From Naegleria gruberi (Eukaryota): 64,000 nucleotides of DNA. The stretch lies in assembly GCA_000004985.1 (NCBI GenBank), contig GG738895.1. One strand, given 5' to 3'. Numbering within the stretch: position 1 is the first letter of the stretch; every line of letters begins with the position of its first letter. This document shows positions 1 through 63,232 of this stretch, piece after piece. The position numbers were made by a program, and so were the translations under genes. Below the pieces are notes generated by a model. That model worked only from the letters and a program-made list of their open reading frames with translations, did not search any database and was not told the origin of the DNA.

Positions 1-431
1 ACCCAACCCAAACCCAAACCCAAACCCAAACCCAAACCCAAACCCAAACCCAAACCCAAACCCAAACCCAAACCCAAACCCAAACCCAAACCCAAACCCA
101 AACCCAAACCCAAACCCAAACCCAAACCCAAACCCAAACCCAAACCCAAACCCAAACCCAAACCCAAACCCAAACCCAAACCCAAACCCAAACCCAAACC
201 CAAACCCAAACCCAAACCCAAACCCAAACCCAAACCCAAACCCAAACCCAAACCCAAACCCAAACCCAAACCCAAACCCAAACCCAAACCCAAACCCAAA
301 CCCAAACCCAAACCCAAACCCAAACCCAAACCCAAACCCAAACCCAAACCCAAACCCAAACCCAAACCCAAACCCAAACCCAAACCCAAACCCAAACCCA
401 AACCCAAACCCAAACCCAAACCCAAACCCAC
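1..431. repeat. Telomeric repeat array (CCCAAA)n, ~70 units (G-strand TTTGGG); window starts at a chromosome end
   Basis: Perfect 6-nt periodicity CCCAAA from base 1 to ~431 with one CCCAA variant at the very start. The C-rich strand reads 5'->3' on +, as expected for a left chromosome end. It passes abruptly into unique AT-rich DNA at 432. Confidence 0.9.
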
Positions 432-2567: not shown

Positions 2568-2715
2568 AACACCTTCTTTTGATGTTTCACTGGATAAACC
2601 TTATTACAGAGGAAATACTTCAATAAGAACAGATATTCAAAATTTTTTTGTTGGAGATCGTGTACGCTACAGATACCCAGACAATCAATGTATCAGTCCT
2701 GATACAGCTTTCAGT

Positions 2716-3099
2716 TTGTACCCTAATGCTGATGCTGTTCAGAGTGTTTGTGGATGTTCAAAGTTCTTTGCGATAATGCATACCGGATTCGGATTGGTAG
2801 ACAATTCTACTATTCCTGATGAGTATTATCCTTTGACAATTACTATCAAACCAAAGTTCCAAAAATATTCTACACAACAAGAGTATTTTTGCACAGCAAG
2901 TCCATTTTCTTGTTCTAGACAGCACTGTGAATGTACATCTGGAGGAGTTAATCTTGATGAAAGTAGTTTTTTTTTCCCTCCCATTAGCAATTCAATTAAT
3001 AGATATGGAAGTACTAGAAGTGTTTCATCAGCCATAACAATTTCACAAAATATTTATTTAATAGTTTTATTGATTTTCTTCATTTTGTATTTACAATAA
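2716..3099 (+). CDS. Hypothetical ORF (TTG start in track); Cys-containing, hydrophobic C-terminus; possibly a gene fragment
   Basis: 127-aa ORF with no recognisable domain. It ends in a hydrophobic tail (IYLIVLLIFFILYLQ). No ATG at the listed start. It lies in the subtelomeric zone next to a kinase remnant. Confidence 0.15.
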   Translation: MYPNADAVQSVCGCSKFFAIMHTGFGLVDNSTIPDEYYPLTITIKPKFQKYSTQQEYFCTASPFSCSRQHCECTSGGVNLDESSFFFPPISNSINRYGSTRSVSSAITISQNIYLIVLLIFFILYLQ

Positions 3100-3208
3100 A
3101 TCATACATTCTATTTGCATTAAAAATTTTTCATTTAGAAATAGTGAGATTGTGTTCAGATACTGTTTTAACTCTTAAAAAATGGCTAAATGTTAACTAAT
3201 GTGAAATT

Positions 3209-3660
3209 TCATTCAATATTTGAATCATTTGCGAGAAGGAAGGTCTTTCCATTGGATTTGGATGCAAGTTCACAATACTTGAGCACACTCTTCATACTTT
3301 TCTCCTTCGATTGGTTTTCATGCACTGGATATAGTAATAACCATTCATTCAATTCATTTTCGTTTTCAAATGGAATACTTGGTCGTTCCCCTTTTAAAAC
3401 ATTTGAGATGATATCAACAATTGATCTATCCGATTGATACTTGGCTTTCTCTGATTTACAATAAGGAGAAACTTCGAAAAATAATTCCCACATTATAATA
3501 GCAAAGCTATACACGTCAACTTTGGGAGCCCTTTGAGATTTATCAGTATTACTATTACTCGTATTATCTGATCGAATTGTTTCCTATTTAAATAACAGGT
3601 AAGCTGAGAGGTAAGCTCAATCCGAAATCAACGATTTTACATGAATCAATCTCCTTCTTC
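3209..3660 (-). pseudogene. Protein kinase catalytic-domain remnant (subdomains VII-XI), apparently disrupted
   Basis: Minus-strand translation gives ...KIVDFGLS... (DFG motif) and ...APKVDVYSFAIIMWELF...PY...VLKGERPSIP (APE, subdomain IX-XI, TKL-like). Reading frame is broken between DFG and APE without a convincing GT..AG intron. No glycine loop or HRD region is found upstream. Confidence 0.4.
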
Positions 3661-4076
3661 CTCAATAATGACAGTCTTTTCTGAATGTGAACAATACCTT
3701 TTGTATAATATTTGAATTCAATGGAATAGTTTCAGAATCTAGTGACAGGGCAGTTACATTGACGAAAAATGTTTCTCCTGGTTTCACAACTTTCAAAACT
3801 GCTCTAATGTCAGTAAACTTAGCAGCAGCTGCCAATAAATTAGGACTGCTTTATTTCTAGTGAATAAGCAATTTTGAATGTAATTAGGATAATTATTACT
3901 GCCCAAAAGATAAATGGCACCTCCAAACTCATTTGCATATTATTTTGAAATGCAGTATTAGATATTATTCAGATATTTGTAAATTGTACATCATATCCAA
4001 GTTTAGTGCGCATCCACTGGTTTTACATACAGTATTAATAAAATTTGATTTGTAAATAATAACTTCAAACCTTGTA

Positions 4077-4961
4077 TTATCTGACATGGATTGTATAACC
4101 AGTTTTTACGTCATTGCTGTAATGATTTTGGATTGTAACATTTACCATAGATAAATCATCTACAATATAGAAAGAAATAGGTGAACTTATTTTTCCTGAA
4201 ATGGCTTGAGATTGAGCATTCCCATCAAAATCAACATTCATACTCTCAACCTTTTGTGCACTTCGTACTAAGAGAGAACCACCTGATCTTTTGAAAGATG
4301 AATCCTCAGAAAATTGAAACACAAATACAATTGCAAGTTTTGTACATTCTTCAATATGTATATTTCGTATCTTGATTTCTTTAACACTGATGGTATCCAC
4401 CATTAAGTTAGATTTCATAAACTGCCCATTTTGAAATATGATAAGATTAGCTTCATAGATTGGTAAATTTACAGATGCATCTTCCATGAAATTGTTTTGA
4501 AAAACAATCCGATTATTTCCTCTCAGCTCTATATAGCATCCTTGTAATAACTTGCCAACGAGTTTACAATCTTTGAATAATGTTAGATATGTTGCTGTAG
4601 TTAAAATGTTAGAACTGATTAGTTCACTACTTTCAACAATAAAATTAACTTTTGTAGGCTTAGTGTTGAAATCTACATCATTCATATGCTGAAATAGTGA
4701 GGACGTCAATTAGCAATTAGCATAACCAAAAGAGGTACTTATAATTTTTGAAAATATTCTAAAATTCACAATTTCAATATTATTAAATATTATCCAAGCA
4801 ACATCTGTTCTGTCTTTCAAATACATGTATGTGTTGCCCTTCTGGAAAGTCAAACCTCTCTTTTCAGAACTTTGAAACATGAAATAGTATGAAATTAATG
4901 AATTTGATGGTAAATCAAAATCTCCGTATGTGAATGAAAGATTACCTTCAATATTAATCAC
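4077..4961 (-). CDS. Hypothetical protein (two abutting ORFs 4077-4709 and 4710-4961, frameshift or tiny intron)
   Basis: Adjacent same-strand ORFs of 210 and 83 aa with ordinary coding composition. No recognisable motif. Confidence 0.3.
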
Positions 4962-5892
4962 AAATAGAATATTAATACTATTATTTCTAATATTGTTTCC
5001 ATGTTTTGATCCATAACTACTTTCATTGTTTTGAACAATTTACTAAAACTCTGGCAGGGATCATTCTGAATTCATGTTTCCTGCATATTTGATGTTTTTC
5101 ATTTTCAAATAAAAAACTGCTCGTGAGACGGAAGAGCTGTAGAACATGTTTTGCATAGCAGTGATGCTCACATAATTGGTTTGAATTATTTCTCTTTCAT
5201 TGCCAACAACATTAGGTGTATTGTAATATAAATTACTAAATATTGAAAGATTGTCTGATGAAGTATGTTGTTGGGTTGTTGTCGGAATCTATTAACCATT
5301 CCGAACAAGTTTGCAACTCTCACTACAAATTAATTTTACAAATACTATTGTTATGTTGCTTACGGAAATATATCATTGATGGTTGGAGAATGATAGGATG
5401 ATGATCACTGCACCAACTTGTATTTTTCCATCAAGAAAAATAATATCCAATTTCATGATAATCTACCAATAAAAATTACTATTATTCCTACTATTTAGAT
5501 CATGTTGAGATGATCATAAGGAAGTTTGGTGGAGGTTAATCATGCTGTTCATCAGACGTTACGGGTGATGAAATTTTTTTTAAAAATTTTTTAAAAAATT
5601 GAAAAAACATATTCCAATTTCTTACTATGGAGAATTTCATTATAAAATTATTATTGCACAATATAGAATAACTAGAATAACCAAGTTTTAAACTCAGAAT
5701 ACTATGTGCTTTAGTATTGTAAGAGTCAACCAAGACAATACCAAAAGAACTTCTCATCAACCTGTCAATTCAAACGATGTCCTTCCATTTCCGAGTGACA
5801 CGACTAAATGCAACTAAATTGACACAATTTCTCACCTTCCACTTCGCTTTCATCTTTTAAAAAAAATTTCACAGACCTACCTGCCAGAAATC

Positions 5893-7665
5893 ATGCGTTC
5901 AAAATCTCTCTTGATCGCTATCTTCTTGCTTTTGTGTTTGATCTTCACAGCTCAATCTTCATTTGCTGCTGAAGAACAATCAAACCCTCTCAAACAAGAA
6001 CTTTCCCGCCTTTTAAAATTAAAAAAACAACTCAAAACCAAGTGGAACCCTAGCCGTTATTTGAATGAGCGTATTTTGCGTATTGCCAAGAGATTTAGAA
6101 TTGCCATTCCTCAACGTTGCAAGAGACGTGTTATTATTGATGATGAAGTAGTTGATACTATTAGAAAATTGGCCGAGTGTGATCGTGATACTAAACCTGA
6201 ATTGCCAACCAATCCTTCCACTCCATCAAATCCATCTACACCAACAACACCATCTAATCCAAGTACTCCAACAAATCCTTCCACTCCAACAACACCACAA
6301 GAACCTACAAATCCTTCTGTTCCTACTGTTCCTTCCACTCCAACAACACCATCAACACCATCCAATCCAAGTACTCCAACCACTCCATCAAATCCAACTA
6401 CTCCATCTACTCCAACTCTTCCAAAATGTCCAAAGAGACTCACTTGTAGATTGTTGTGTAAGAATGGATATTATTACGATTCAAATGGATGTGTTGATAC
6501 TTGTCGTTGTAAGCCATCTTCTTGTCCACAATTCAGATGTTTGAGAGCTTGTCCATATGGATATAAGGTTAATGCTCGTGGATGTACCACTTGTGATTGT
6601 AAGCCAAAACCTTCCACTCCAACTAAACCAACTAAACCAACCTTTGAATGTCCAAAGCGTAAATGTGCTCGTTTGTGTGCCCATGGCTATAAGACTGATA
6701 GAAGAGGATGTCAAACTTGTTCTTGTGTTAGAAAGCCAGTCAGACCAACACCAGTTAGACCAACTCCTGTTAGACCAACACCAGTCAGACCAACACCTCC
6801 AGTTAGACCACCAGTTATTGTCACACCAACACCTGTTAGACCAACTCCAGTTGTCACACCAACACCTGTCAGACCAACACCTCCTCCAGTGAGACCACCA
6901 GTTGTTGTCAGACCACCAGTTGTCAGACCAAGACGTAGAAGAAGACGTTTCTTCGGAAGAGGTAGAGGTGACCCACATTACAGTTTGTTGCATGCCAGCA
7001 ATGCTGCCCATAAGGATGTACTTTTTAATGGATTGGGTGATTATATTTTAGCTGAAACTGTTGATAAGGAATTTATTGCTCATGTCAGAATTGGCAAGTG
7101 GCATAAGAAGGCTACTGTTAATATTGGTGCTGCCATCAAGCTTGGAACTGATGTTATTGAATTCGATTCTAAGGATGGTCAATTCTACCTTAATAAGGAA
7201 GAAGCTGAATTCAAGATTGGAAAGAAATATGAACTTGAAGGAGGTTCTCTTATTAGAAAGAGTGAAAATAGATTTATTATCAAGTCCGTTGATGGAGTTG
7301 AATTCTTTGGTGAAAGATTCACTCTCCACGATGGAAAGAGTTACATGGATGTCCAAGTTGATTCTCCAAAGGATGTTGAATTCAGACGTGGTTTGATTAT
7401 CAATGGTAAGGGCAGACAAGGAAAGGGTCTTTTCAGAGTTTTAAAGGCTGCTAAGGTTAATAAGAACGCTGTTGCTGTTGTTGAAATTCCAAAGTGGGCC
7501 AAGAAGGCTTGTGCTAAGCAAGGATTGACTGGAAAGAAACTCAAGGATTGTGCCTATGATATTACCGTTACAGGTAAGGAATTCGCCAAGGAAATTGCCA
7601 AGGATGAAGCCAAGTTTGCCAAGAAGAGTAGAAAGGTTTTAAAGGCTGTTTCTAAGAAGAAATAA
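5893..7665 (+). CDS. Secreted modular protein with a signal peptide, mucin-like Pro/Thr/Ser repeats, four antistasin-like 6-Cys modules, (PVRPT)n repeats, an Arg6 tract, a GDPH-motif (VWD-like) domain and a Lys-rich tail
   Basis: ATG at 5893. N-terminus MRSKSLLIAIFLLLCLIFTAQSSFA is a classic signal peptide. PSTPTTPSNPSTP repeats follow. Four copies of C-x5-C-x3-C-x2-G-x3-D-x2-GC-x3-C-x-C (e.g. CPKRLTCRLLCKNGYYYDSNGCVDTCRC) fit the antistasin-like spacing. PVRPTPVRPTP repeats, RRRRRR and then RGDPHYSLL... follow, GDPH being the VWD/RGM autocleavage motif. Single exon, TAA stop. Confidence 0.7.
   Translation: MRSKSLLIAIFLLLCLIFTAQSSFAAEEQSNPLKQELSRLLKLKKQLKTKWNPSRYLNERILRIAKRFRIAIPQRCKRRVIIDDEVVDTIRKLAECDRDTKPELPTNPSTPSNPSTPTTPSNPSTPTNPSTPTTPQEPTNPSVPTVPSTPTTPSTPSNPSTPTTPSNPTTPSTPTLPKCPKRLTCRLLCKNGYYYDSNGCVDTCRCKPSSCPQFRCLRACPYGYKVNARGCTTCDCKPKPSTPTKPTKPTFECPKRKCARLCAHGYKTDRRGCQTCSCVRKPVRPTPVRPTPVRPTPVRPTPPVRPPVIVTPTPVRPTPVVTPTPVRPTPPPVRPPVVVRPPVVRPRRRRRRFFGRGRGDPHYSLLHASNAAHKDVLFNGLGDYILAETVDKEFIAHVRIGKWHKKATVNIGAAIKLGTDVIEFDSKDGQFYLNKEEAEFKIGKKYELEGGSLIRKSENRFIIKSVDGVEFFGERFTLHDGKSYMDVQVDSPKDVEFRRGLIINGKGRQGKGLFRVLKAAKVNKNAVAVVEIPKWAKKACAKQGLTGKKLKDCAYDITVTGKEFAKEIAKDEAKFAKKSRKVLKAVSKKK
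6208..6420 (+). repeat. Coding tandem repeats (Pro/Thr/Ser mucin-like, ~18-21 nt units)
   Basis: Repeated ccatc(t/a)a(a/c)tcc(a/t)...actcca units encoding PSNPSTPTTP. They also generate the spurious antisense and alternate-frame ORFs 6111..6443, 6152..6544 and 6481..7011. Confidence 0.6.
6727..6948 (+). repeat. Coding tandem repeats (PVRPT 15-nt units) ending in an Arg6 tract
   Basis: ccagt(c/t)agaccaaca(cct) is repeated about 10 times and is followed by agacgtagaagaagacgt. Confidence 0.6.
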
Positions 7666-10005: not shown

Positions 10006-11091
10006 TTATCTCACATACATATTTGCTTTTGGTATTACCGAATATGAACCACTAAATGTCCATTGCTTGAAAGTTGAACCTGCACATAGATTATACACAT
10101 GAGAATTCTGATTAAGAGGACCACCTCCAAAAAGACAATAATCTAAACCTGTTCCATCACATCCATTGTTTTCTATATGACCCAGTGAAAGATCTGTCAA
10201 TTTAGTGCTCAATGGGACACAAATTCCCGGAGCTGTCCAAACAGAAATTAAAGAAACAGCAAAACCTGTTCCTGTTGCATCTTTCCACATGATCTCAGTT
10301 GATGCACTTCTCAACATGGCCCATTTATCATCTCTCATTGAAGCACCATCACTGGTTACATTGACTATATCAACATAATATGGAGCTAGTTGAACATTTC
10401 TTGATGAAACAAGTGCCCAACCACCTCCATTAGCAGATTGTTCACAATAGACCACAAATTCTGATTTGGTAGCATCAGGTTTAATCCAATACAAACCACT
10501 CACTGCAGAATCATTGAATTGTTTCTTATATTCAGCACAGGATTTCAAAATGCCACTTCCAAATGTGAAAATACTATTGGTGGAAGAGAGAGTTTGCACA
10601 TCACAATTAGATCCTGTCCAACCACTCTTACATGTGGAACATGTGGCTCCATCCCAATTTCCTGAACAAACTGAACATTGACCTGCAGATGAGCATACAG
10701 AACATTTGACATCACATGAAGATTTTACAATATTACAATCAGGACCATCAAATGCATTACATGTAGAATTGAAAATTTGAATTTCTTCTGAAAGAGTAGC
10801 ATAAGCTCTCTTTACCTTACTTAATTGAGTTTGACGAATTGAGAGCGATGTGAAATTTGCCTTACTCAATACTGCAATTACCTTTTCCAATTGAGAGACG
10901 GTTAATTCTAATGCAGATGCCTCTTTCTTTAATGAATTTAACCAATCTCTGACATTACCAGAAGTAGTGGAAGTGCTATTGGTTGTTGCCGCAGCACAAG
11001 ACCATCCACCACCGTTGAGAGATGGAAAGGCATGTAACAATAGACAACATACCACTAAGCACATCATCAACAATCCGTTGGCTGTAGACAT
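10006..11091 (-). CDS. Secreted fibrinogen-related-domain (FReD) protein with an EGF-like Cys-rich segment
   Basis: Signal peptide, coiled-coil segment and Cys-rich CSVCSSAGQCSVCSGNWDGATCSTCKSGWTGSNC. Then ...GLYWIKPD...FVVYCEQSANGGGWALVS..., matching the fibrinogen C-terminal signature (F.VYCDM...GGGWTV). Confidence 0.6.
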   Translation of the reverse strand: MSTANGLLMMCLVVCCLLLHAFPSLNGGGWSCAAATTNSTSTTSGNVRDWLNSLKKEASALELTVSQLEKVIAVLSKANFTSLSIRQTQLSKVKRAYATLSEEIQIFNSTCNAFDGPDCNIVKSSCDVKCSVCSSAGQCSVCSGNWDGATCSTCKSGWTGSNCDVQTLSSTNSIFTFGSGILKSCAEYKKQFNDSAVSGLYWIKPDATKSEFVVYCEQSANGGGWALVSSRNVQLAPYYVDIVNVTSDGASMRDDKWAMLRSASTEIMWKDATGTGFAVSLISVWTAPGICVPLSTKLTDLSLGHIENNGCDGTGLDYCLFGGGPLNQNSHVYNLCAGSTFKQWTFSGSYSVIPKANMYVR

Positions 11092-11668: not shown

Positions 11669-12657
11669 TTATTTCTTTTTCATGGATGGACATCTATCAT
11701 CACACTTATTCAAACTAGCATCATGGAATAAAAAGTGCATGGTTGAGAATACTCTAAATGAACTCTCCTTTTCCATGCAATTATCTGAACAGAAATTCTT
11801 ACAAAACAATGATGGAATGAATGGACCTTCCCATTGCCCAACTGGCCACAATTCTTGTAATTGATGAGTATAGAATAGGATTGCACTGACGAAACCATCA
11901 TGGTACATTGGAATGACTGGCATTAGAGTGTAACTGTAACCTGACAAGTTTGGATGTTCAACCAAGTCAAAACCCCAATGTGTACTTTAATTTTTTTTTT
12001 TAAAAAAAATAATTAAAAAATTTAAAAATATAAATAATGTTAATAATTAAATATAAATAATGTTAATAATAATGTAAATATAAATATTCAAAATTACCCC
12101 ATGCCCGTAATGCACCCTCCTTTGGTAAATTGTGCCTTATCTGCTTCAGCTTCTGTTAATGGAACTGAAATTGGAAATTTACTATTTGGAGCTACCAATA
12201 ATCGATCTCCTAAAACTCCTCCTTTTGTATCCAATTGCCCAGAGCATGCAAAAGCTGGATCACGAGTAGAAACTTCAATTTGATAAACATCAGGTGAAAC
12301 TCTCTTCCAGAAACTAGCTTGTTCCAATTGACTTAAAACTCCATGAACTCTAACACCAAAACCACCCAGTTGACCAGCTTTTGTATAATAAACAACAATT
12401 CTATCATTAATGAAGCCATATCCAAGATTTGGAATGCATGCCCCATTTTCAATTGGTGTATTCCAATCGGATGAATTTCTGGCTTGTGTAATGTTTAAAG
12501 GCATTGGAGTTTTACTAAAAAATGTATGAAGTAAACGATCTCCAAGTCCAATCCATGGTTGTTGTTTGTGTGGTGAAAGACCTCGGAGAGGAACATTTGC
12601 ATGCACAAAGGTGAGAATTAGAAACAATGCAGAGATGAGCAAAATGAATTTTGACAT
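11669..12657 (-). CDS. Secreted hypothetical protein, 2 exons (12657..12098 and 11984..11669; intron 11985..12097)
   Basis: The signal peptide MSKFILLISALFLILTFVHA starts at the ATG at 12657 (the track's 12750 ATG adds 31 non-signal residues). The 113-nt AT-rich intron has a GTAATT donor and TTAAAG acceptor and joins the two track ORFs in frame (...GGCITGM-G-THWGFDLVEHPN...). Confidence 0.45.
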
Positions 12658-13117
12658 TTTTTTTTGATGATGAGAATCTTGTATGGTGGAATATCTTGTC
12701 CTCCCTTCCTTATGATATTGGATCCAAATTAGTTCATGTTTGTTGATCATTCAAATCCAGTCCGTCCTTAGTGGAAGAGTGTGTTTGGCAACTCCTGTAT
12801 GTTAGTATTAATAATCAATTAATCTTTAATTTTTGCAGAGATTTGAAGTGGTGAATGTTCAAATTTTTAATTGATGATATGATAAGCTCCATCTCCACAA
12901 CTGTTCCGAATAATTTATACAATTAAATATAAAAATTATTAATCCCTCCTCCGATCCATATATCTTTCTACAGTCTCACAATTTAGCTACATTAATTTTA
13001 TTTTTTATTTAAAATTATTTAAAATTATTTAACGGTTGTTGGTGGCGTGAGCTTTTTAATGTTCAACAAATTTCTCAACACACCAAACAAAATCATCAAT
13101 AATTTAACAATAAAAAA

Positions 13118-62826: not shown

Positions 62827-62830
62827 GATT

Positions 62831-62902
62831 CTCCCATGCCGGGAATTGAACCCGGACCTCCTGGGTGAAAGCCAGGTATCCTAGCCATTGGACTACACGG
62901 GA
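62831..62902 (-). tRNA. tRNA-Glu (anticodon UUC)
   Basis: Reverse complement TCCCGTG-TA-GTCC-AATGGCTA-GGAT-A-CCTGG-CTTTCAC-CCAGG-AGGT-CCGGG-TTCAATT-CCCGG-CATGGGA-G folds as a canonical 72-nt cloverleaf. 7-bp acceptor stem with one G-U pair, anticodon loop CUUUCAC (UUC), T-loop TTCAATT. Confidence 0.85.
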
Positions 62903-63232
62903 ATCTTGTTCATTATGAAAATAGTTCTCTTATAATATTTACAATATTTCTGTAAACAACAAATGACAAGACGCTATCTCAAGATTTTACAAACAATAGC
63001 CAGACACATTCGAATAAGTTTCCATGTGCGATTAATGAACGCTTTCTTTTATCACCAACTTTGTCTCTCAATCCTGAATAGAATTTGTTTCGATACTTCT
63101 CCCTTCCAATGAGCATCAAATTTAACCTCTAAAAAAAATAATTACGACTTCAAAGCACCAACCGATTTTTTATTGATTTGTGTCTCTTTGAATAACAGAA
63201 TCTTTTTATACAAACAAACAACATAACAACAA

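Follow-up and report, generated by a model that had tools for sequence, protein, structure and literature searches.

Fibrinogen-related domains (FReDs; Pfam Fibrinogen_C, PF00147) are modules of approximately 220 aa that occur in the C-terminal parts of fibrinogen beta and gamma, in ficolins, in the FBG domain of tenascins and in angiopoietins, FGL1, FIBCD1 and invertebrate FREPs. In the animal FReDs the P subdomain carries the Ca2+ site and the ligand pocket, and in the case of angiopoietins, FGL1, tenascins and ficolins the heads are multimerised by N-terminal coiled coils or collagen stalks. Intelectins, such as human intelectin-1 and Xenopus XEEL, bind several Ca2+ ions and exocyclic diols, while the procollagen C-propeptide (COLFI, PF01410) is the trimerisation and assembly domain of animal collagens. 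A bacterial counterpart is described by the NCBIfam model NF040941 (GGGWT_bact, “fibrinogen-like YCDxxxxGGGW domain”), which covers only a motif of about 46 aa. Here, these systems are compared with a gene present on the minus strand of a 64,000-nucleotide stretch of Naegleria gruberi DNA (assembly GCA_000004985.1, contig GG738895.1; the whole stretch is termed the window), whose 361-aa product is designated P0001.

The gene is an uncharacterised member of a known superfamily, already listed in public databases under an automatically assigned PF00147 tag, and a literature search brought up no publication dealing with either the gene or the bacterial NF040941-type family. The best explanation of the locus as a whole, which we consider moderately probable, is that it encodes a secreted, stalked protein with a compact FReD head of bacterial type, duplicated in Naegleria, that would function in oligomeric binding.

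Sequence matches of the C-terminal head

The predicted protein consists of (i) a signal peptide, (ii) a helical stalk with heptad repeats, (iii) one EGF-like Cys module and (iv) a C-terminal globular head of approximately 180 residues. A first-pass annotation of the DNA had noted a FReD signature preceded by an EGF-like Cys cluster and a signal peptide. All three were found: the string FVVYCEQSANGGGWALV occupies residues 212–228, ten cysteines are placed between residues 111 and 163, and the strongest hydrophobic 15-mer of the protein (residues 7–21, Kyte-Doolittle 2.74) is typical of the core of a signal peptide. Equivalent hydrophobic N-termini are present in the paralogues P0003, P0004, P0009 and P0022.

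The Fibrinogen_C profile search proposed in the same annotation gave a significant result for P0001 (27.1 bits, gathering cutoff 22, E 4.3e-6; 28.2 bits for the isolated head), although the match spans residues 183–231, corresponding to profile positions 3–49 of 221 only. The NF040941 model is the better match (48.3 bits, cutoff 30, E 7.3e-13) and is aligned from end to end (residues 184–228, model positions 1–46 of 46); it is also passed by P0003, P0009 and P0022. The Naegleria protein differs from the consensus of this model in reading YCEQ instead of YCDM. The results of a phmmer search of the PDB were similar to those obtained with Fibrinogen_C, since FGL1, fibrinogen beta/gamma, intelectin, tenascin and angiopoietin were all retrieved, always over residues ~183–232 only.

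The A-subdomain cysteines C185 and C216 are invariant or nearly so across the family described below, and may form a disulfide bond. No full-length A/B/P match (~220 residues) of the kind expected of a canonical FReD was found, the head has no sequence match to canonical FReDs past profile position ~50–70, and a canonical P subdomain does not appear recognisable in its sequence. The protein does not contain the intelectin-specific sequence that follows the FReD motif in a domain of ~280 residues, nor does it match COLFI. Residues 229–361 are covered by no Pfam or NCBIfam model.

The first-pass annotation had regarded the domain as characteristic of metazoan innate-immunity lectins. A canonical animal-type FReD lectin (ficolin-, tenascin- or FREP-like), inherited from a deep eukaryotic ancestor or acquired by transfer from an animal, would agree with the Fibrinogen_C score above the cutoff, with the best structural neighbours of the head (animal FReDs and intelectin) and with the order of coiled coil, EGF-like module and head, which resembles that of tenascin and angiopoietin. 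However, only the N-terminal A subdomain (~50 residues) resembles animal FReDs in sequence, whereas for the other ~130 residues relatives were found only in a compact family, the named members of which come from bacteria or from N. gruberi. The animal-type interpretation is thus largely refuted and we consider it highly improbable.

A family of compact whole heads

A profile built from alignment A1 (the C-terminal ~190 residues of P0001 and of P0003, its paralogue over the full length) was used to search 1.84 billion cluster representatives, which yielded 739 matches at E≤1e-3 and 124 at E≤1e-10. Two classes of proteins were distinguished. The first (about 60 of the best 150 matches) is composed of proteins of ~200–700 aa that cover essentially the whole profile (~190 positions). 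The second comprises very long proteins with 2–14 copies, spaced every 200–250 aa, that match only positions ~15–70.

Proteins of the second class were identified in the amoebozoan Phalansterium solitarium (P0005, P0008 and P0018) and in the choanoflagellate Choanoeca flexa (P0013). They are 1,000–3,300 aa long and carry 3–13 tandem copies of the motif, in some cases together with Sushi and EGF domains. Within these copies Pfam detects only the first ~50–60 positions of Fibrinogen_C or COLFI.

Forty-four sequences of the first class were aligned and trimmed (alignment A2; mean column identity 28%). In this alignment C185, C216, G223, G224, W225, C291, C311, D317 and Y318 are invariant, and Y201, L227, W257, E307, G310 and G315 nearly so; H305 is conserved in 87% of a larger, 93-sequence family alignment. 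The family head terminates with Y/F/W-(V/I/L)-(R/K) at or near the C-terminus of the protein, and P0001 ends with M-Y-V-R, directly followed by the stop codon. With the exception of M218Q, P0001 holds all of the residues that are at least 80% conserved in the family. It contains each of the features by which the compact whole head can be recognised, i.e. the motif, W257, the C291/C311 pair, H-x-E...D-Y, the terminal Y-(V/I/L)-(R/K) and a length of ~180–200 aa.

The part of the head that is specific to the family is therefore a module defined by the invariant C291/C311 pair, the sequence H-x-E-x-x-G-C-x3-G-x-D-Y and the C-terminal Y-(V/I/L)-(R/K). Judging from the alignments and the structural model, this module would stand in place of the canonical P subdomain, and H305, E307, D317 and Y318, grouped around the C291/C311 pair, constitute a conserved candidate site.

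The A2 profile aligns to solved FReDs and intelectins at positions 7–70 only (best match: Xenopus XEEL, E 4.7e-14). PF00147 is matched by 42 of the 44 A2 members; the envelope of the window head covers profile positions 3–50 of 221. The compact whole-head family as such has no Pfam or NCBIfam model, which is of practical importance: the Fibrinogen_C scores of the N. gruberi paralogues P0153 (21.0 bits) and P0154 (21.2 bits) and of their relative P0009 (20.2 bits) are just under the cutoff of 22, and three of the five heads of the Naegleria clade are therefore under-counted by current annotation. The near-identical cluster representative of P0154 is P0022, one of the proteins that pass NF040941.

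Predicted fold of the head

The structure of residues 170–361 was predicted by AlphaFold2 (AF2) with alignment A2 as input, which resulted in a high-confidence model (predicted local distance difference test, pLDDT, 92.6; predicted template modelling score, pTM, 0.90). A Foldseek search of the PDB with this model returned 139 matches at E≤0.001, and the best 50 of them were all FReDs or intelectin (template modelling score, TM, 0.35–0.50).

In the structural comparison the highest score was obtained for intelectin-1 (9.5; 134 residues aligned, 14% identity), followed by fibrinogen beta/gamma, FGL1, ANGPTL3 and ficolin-3 (8.2–8.9; 135–147 of 192 residues, root-mean-square deviation 3.3–3.9 Å). 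The procollagen C-propeptide was a weaker match (5.2; 104 residues), as were TLDc domains (3.1–3.9; about 96–109). Canonical FReDs and intelectin-1 taken together, 134–147 of the 192 residues of the Naegleria head can be superposed.

The model thus suggests that the head has a FReD-superfamily fold well past the A subdomain, compact and only partly superposable on its relatives. It retains the A-subdomain cysteines and the GGGW strand, is predicted to have a FReD/intelectin-like core, and may be described as a conserved A+B core with a non-canonical replacement of the P subdomain. Intelectins, with chains of 283–306 residues and large extra loop regions, are unlike the Naegleria head and share no sequence similarity with it past the motif. 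We hold the structural and family assignment of the protein with high confidence: it is built like the stalked FReD proteins, and is neither an intelectin nor a COLFI protein.

Distribution of the head and of its N-terminal motif

The whole head was identified in four proteins of N. gruberi, namely P0001, P0003, EFC43866.1 (365 aa) and EFC38535.1 (1109 aa). This species therefore encodes at least four such heads, located on four different scaffolds and joined to differing N-terminal parts. The remaining named members of the family are mostly from Gammaproteobacteria (Pseudoalteromonas luteoviolacea, Agarilytica, Hahella, Shewanella and Candidatus Parabeggiatoa), and the whole head is also present in proteins with Cys-rich repeats of myxobacterial type. 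The Naegleria head corresponds along its whole length (~180 aa) to that of NF040941 proteins from P. luteoviolacea (WP_063367195), Hahella and Shewanella, in which the second Cys pair, H-x-E, D-Y and the terminal Y-V-R are likewise present. A difference lies in the N-terminal part, since in Naegleria the head is carried by a eukaryotic stalk composed of a signal peptide, a coiled coil and an EGF-like module.

Species-representative prokaryotic genomes were scanned with a degenerate DNA pattern for YCDMxxxGGGWTL, which revealed at least 120 loci (L001–L120); this is a motif-biased sample and not a census. Among the 120 loci listed, 118 match the A2 profile: three encode the full head, two a partial head and 113 match only positions ~6–70. 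In 115 of the 120, the sequence past the motif bears no relationship to that of the Naegleria head. The comparison indicates that the motif is a widespread prokaryotic module fused to several C-terminal parts, of which the Naegleria-type head is one specific subfamily. The statement of the first-pass annotation that the signature is sparse outside animals does not agree with these results, nor with the presence of the motif in Phalansterium and Choanoeca and the existence of NF040941; for a domain of this compact type, it is not correct to presume an animal hallmark. As regards the origin of the FReD fold, the data argue for an ancient N-terminal module that is widely distributed among prokaryotes, and against its invention by animals.

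The fusion of the A-subdomain motif to other, unrelated C-terminal parts in so many of the loci listed is also compatible with a different interpretation of the head, namely that it is an enzyme or a toxin-like effector that reuses the A subdomain as a scaffold, and is no binding module. Residues 229–361 have no annotated homologue, and H305, E307, D317 and Y318, which are conserved close to the second Cys pair, could in principle form a catalytic or metal site. We nevertheless regard this possibility as very unlikely.

Among the loci listed, the carriers of the motif belong mainly to predatory or epibiotic lineages (Myxococcota/Polyangia, Bdellovibrio, Bacteriovoracaceae, Bradymonadia, Patescibacteria and Nanoarchaeota); the Patescibacteria include Minisyncoccus archaeiphilus. 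Together with the occurrence of the motif as a fused module, this distribution points to a possible function in attachment to other cells.

An additional observation concerns the metagenomic contig L124, in which a gene for a 1,054-aa protein (2570–5734, plus strand) is located directly upstream of that of the compact-head protein P0025. The 1,054-aa protein has matches to Laminin_G_3, B_lectin (faint) and Fibrinogen_C (weak), which constitutes a lectin-like context. The same contig also encodes a protein longer than 5,000 aa that has no Pfam match.

The stalk and its exchange between proteins

The helical nature of the stalk is indicated by the occupancy of heptad positions a and d by hydrophobic residues, which amounts to 0.90 for residues 44–78 (0.28 at the other positions) and 0.80 for residues 82–114 (0.22). 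Helices spanning residues 45–77 and 83–114 were also predicted by AF2, with low confidence (pLDDT 50–59), in a single-sequence model of the full-length protein whose overall pLDDT was 37. The stalk (residues 44–114) is probably a coiled-coil oligomerisation region. The Cys module that follows it gave weak, sub-threshold Pfam matches to EGF_Teneurin and EGF_LMN_ATRN. Five N-x-S/T sequons are spread along the protein, which has no transmembrane segment or anchor.

Comparison with other N. gruberi proteins revealed that residues 44–170 of P0001 are related to the stalk of P0004 (39% identity, E 9e-37), which ends in a TLDc domain where the window protein bears the FReD-like head. The Cys-rich unit CDSKC..C.SPG.CS.CSGNW.G..CS.CK.GWTG..C recurs in P0004 and in P0002; the latter contains several copies of it, followed by TLDc. 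In EFC38535.1, in turn, the head is placed behind RCC1 and Kelch propellers. By these alignments, stalk and head constitute separate modules, which were exchanged between proteins.

Origin of the gene

The gene is an uninterrupted ATG-to-stop open reading frame (ORF) of 361 aa that occupies exactly positions 10006..11091 on the minus strand. Given the base composition of the window, a stop codon is expected every ~14 codons, and the probability of 361 stop-free codons is ~1.7e-12. Its product and a deposited N. gruberi “predicted protein” (NCBI/UniProt) are 100% identical from end to end, which agrees with the assignment to a protist genome in the first-pass annotation; the deposited record, located on a 333,733-bp scaffold, already holds a precomputed PF00147 match. 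The GC content of the gene (0.378) and its GC content at third codon positions (GC3; 0.235) are both inside the range of the neighbouring genes. The GC3 of the latter is 0.22–0.35, and the stalk half and the head half of the gene both fit this range.

A metazoan contaminant, which the first-pass annotation had named as one of the findings that would overturn it, is excluded by the AT-rich, intron-poor neighbours of matching composition and by the presence of four paralogues on four N. gruberi scaffolds. Bacterial DNA, i.e. an assembly contaminant or the product of a very recent horizontal transfer, without function as a gene of Naegleria, had to be considered as well, since most of the named sequences in the head family are bacterial and the nearest outgroup of the Naegleria heads (see below) is encoded on a bacterial contig. 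However, the gene is embedded in the N. gruberi scaffold between ankyrin, GT8, Antistasin-repeat and PAS-adenylate-cyclase genes, GC3 matches that of the neighbours in both of its halves, the stalk is common to other N. gruberi proteins and the four paralogues, each on its own scaffold, form one clade. This explanation is extremely improbable. Contamination, whether metazoan or bacterial, and recent horizontal transfer were thus rejected on the basis of scaffold identity, native GC3, the clade formed by the paralogues and the stalk held in common with other proteins; nor do the best non-Naegleria matches to the head (~30% identical, against the more than ~60% expected of a recently transferred bacterial sequence) give any sign of a recent transfer. 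The gene is real and native to Naegleria gruberi.

Neighbour-joining analysis of 93 heads placed the N. gruberi paralogues and the unnamed P0009 in one clade (bootstrap 81/100); the value for P0001 and P0003 alone is 70/100. P0009 originates from a contig of 34% G+C on which a protein kinase gene is its neighbour, and is therefore probably from another heterolobosean. The nearest outgroup, P0026, is encoded on a clearly bacterial contig, together with CTP synthase and a dCache/HAMP/HisKA kinase. The clade, the bacterial outgroup and the native codon composition favour an old acquisition, or an old presence, of the head followed by duplication within the lineage. In our interpretation, an ancient transfer of the head from bacteria into the Naegleria lineage is probable.

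Proposed function

The proposal of a secreted oligomer is based on analogy with angiopoietins, FGL1, tenascins and ficolins. The protein would be secreted by means of its N-terminal signal peptide and oligomerised by its stalk, so that several heads would be presented together. The heads would bind a repetitive surface ligand, most plausibly a glycan, and bacterial prey, the amoeba's own surface or matrix, and the cyst wall are the candidate targets. The head itself would be an ancient arrival from bacteria, subsequently duplicated and shuffled onto resident stalks. The function as an oligomeric lectin is put forward tentatively, with considerably less confidence than the structural and family assignment, and we hold it to be somewhat less probable than not.

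If this mechanism is true, the ficolin/angiopoietin/tenascin design is used, with a head of bacterial type, by a bacterivorous, free-living amoeba that is only distantly related to animals, and this would bear on prey recognition by phagotrophic protists. The compact FReD-like head may alternatively belong to a structural or adhesive protein (matrix, cell-substrate adhesion or cyst wall) that is not a prey lectin. The evidence presented here fits both readings alike. Nevertheless, because there is no transmembrane segment or anchor and the C-terminus is the family-conserved Y-V-R, attachment of a structural protein would need a partner, and we consider this alternative rather unlikely.

A further possibility, which seems to us quite unlikely, is that the head represents a minimal pre-metazoan FReD fold (an A+B core with a short ligand module) that was later elaborated into animal FReDs, intelectins and collagen C-propeptides, and that Naegleria independently mounted it on a stalk as a prey-recognition lectin, by convergence. 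If so, a multivalent lectin architecture of “innate-immunity style”, ficolin- or angiopoietin-like, would have arisen convergently in a bacterivorous excavate, with the stalk being reused for TLDc heads.

Several points weigh against the secreted compact-FReD oligomer with an old bacterial head. The coiled coil is deduced from heptad statistics and a low-confidence single-sequence model, and the function of the gene and of its family is assigned by analogy. The P-subdomain region of animal FReDs and intelectins, with its ligand and Ca2+ residues, does not align to the head. The neighbour-joining tree was calculated from 192 columns and its bootstrap values refer to the Naegleria clade, not to the placement of the outgroup. 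Most family members are unnamed metagenomic proteins, which could include eukaryotes, and no orthologue from another named Naegleria species was present among the search results.

Features of the gene and of the window

The coordinates of the gene, its parts and other features of the window are listed in Table 1.

Table 1. Location of the predicted parts of the FReD-like gene and of other features of the window
Feature	Coordinates	Strand	Residues or size	Basis or remarks
Complete single-exon coding sequence	10006..11091	minus	361 codons	ORF list; stop codon at 10006-10008
Predicted signal peptide	11014..11091	minus	1 to ~26	hydrophobic core; cleavage site approximate
Alpha-helical heptad-repeat stalk	10750..10962	minus	44-114	heptad statistics, AF2 helices
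EGF-like Cys-rich module	10597..10761	minus	111-165	10 Cys, weak EGF matches
YCDxxxxGGGW motif (FReD A subdomain)	10408..10542	minus	184-228, including C185 and C216	NF040941, Fibrinogen_C
Family-specific rest of compact head	10009..10407	minus	229-361	family alignments, AF2 model
ACCCAA array	1-430		72 tandem copies	99% identity; complement TTGGGT
Antistasin-repeat ORF	5893-7665	plus	590 aa	three repeats (PF02822, E 7.2e-19)
ORF adjoining the FReD-like gene	12094-12750	minus	218 aa	
tRNA-Glu (TTC)	62830-62903	minus		ARAGORN and Rfam

The G+C content of the window is 27–39%, and long, mostly unbroken ORFs are densely packed within it; besides the genes mentioned above, they include one for a DEAD-helicase. 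The tandem ACCCAA array at the beginning of the window is probably a telomere-like C-rich strand that marks the end of the scaffold or chromosome, and it accounts for a GC skew of −0.50 across the first 2 kb. Given the position of this array, the FReD-like gene is probably subtelomeric, about 9.6 kb from the chromosome end.

Two genes away from the FReD-like gene there is an ORF with three repeats of the Antistasin family, a Cys-rich module usually tied to animals (leech protease inhibitors). The ORF that adjoins the FReD-like gene matched no Pfam family at E≤0.1. An internal Met of its product precedes a hydrophobic stretch resembling a signal peptide (MSKFILLISALFLILTFVHA), and the product may be another secreted protein of an unknown family. 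A single tRNA gene was called in the window, by both of the programs given in Table 1.
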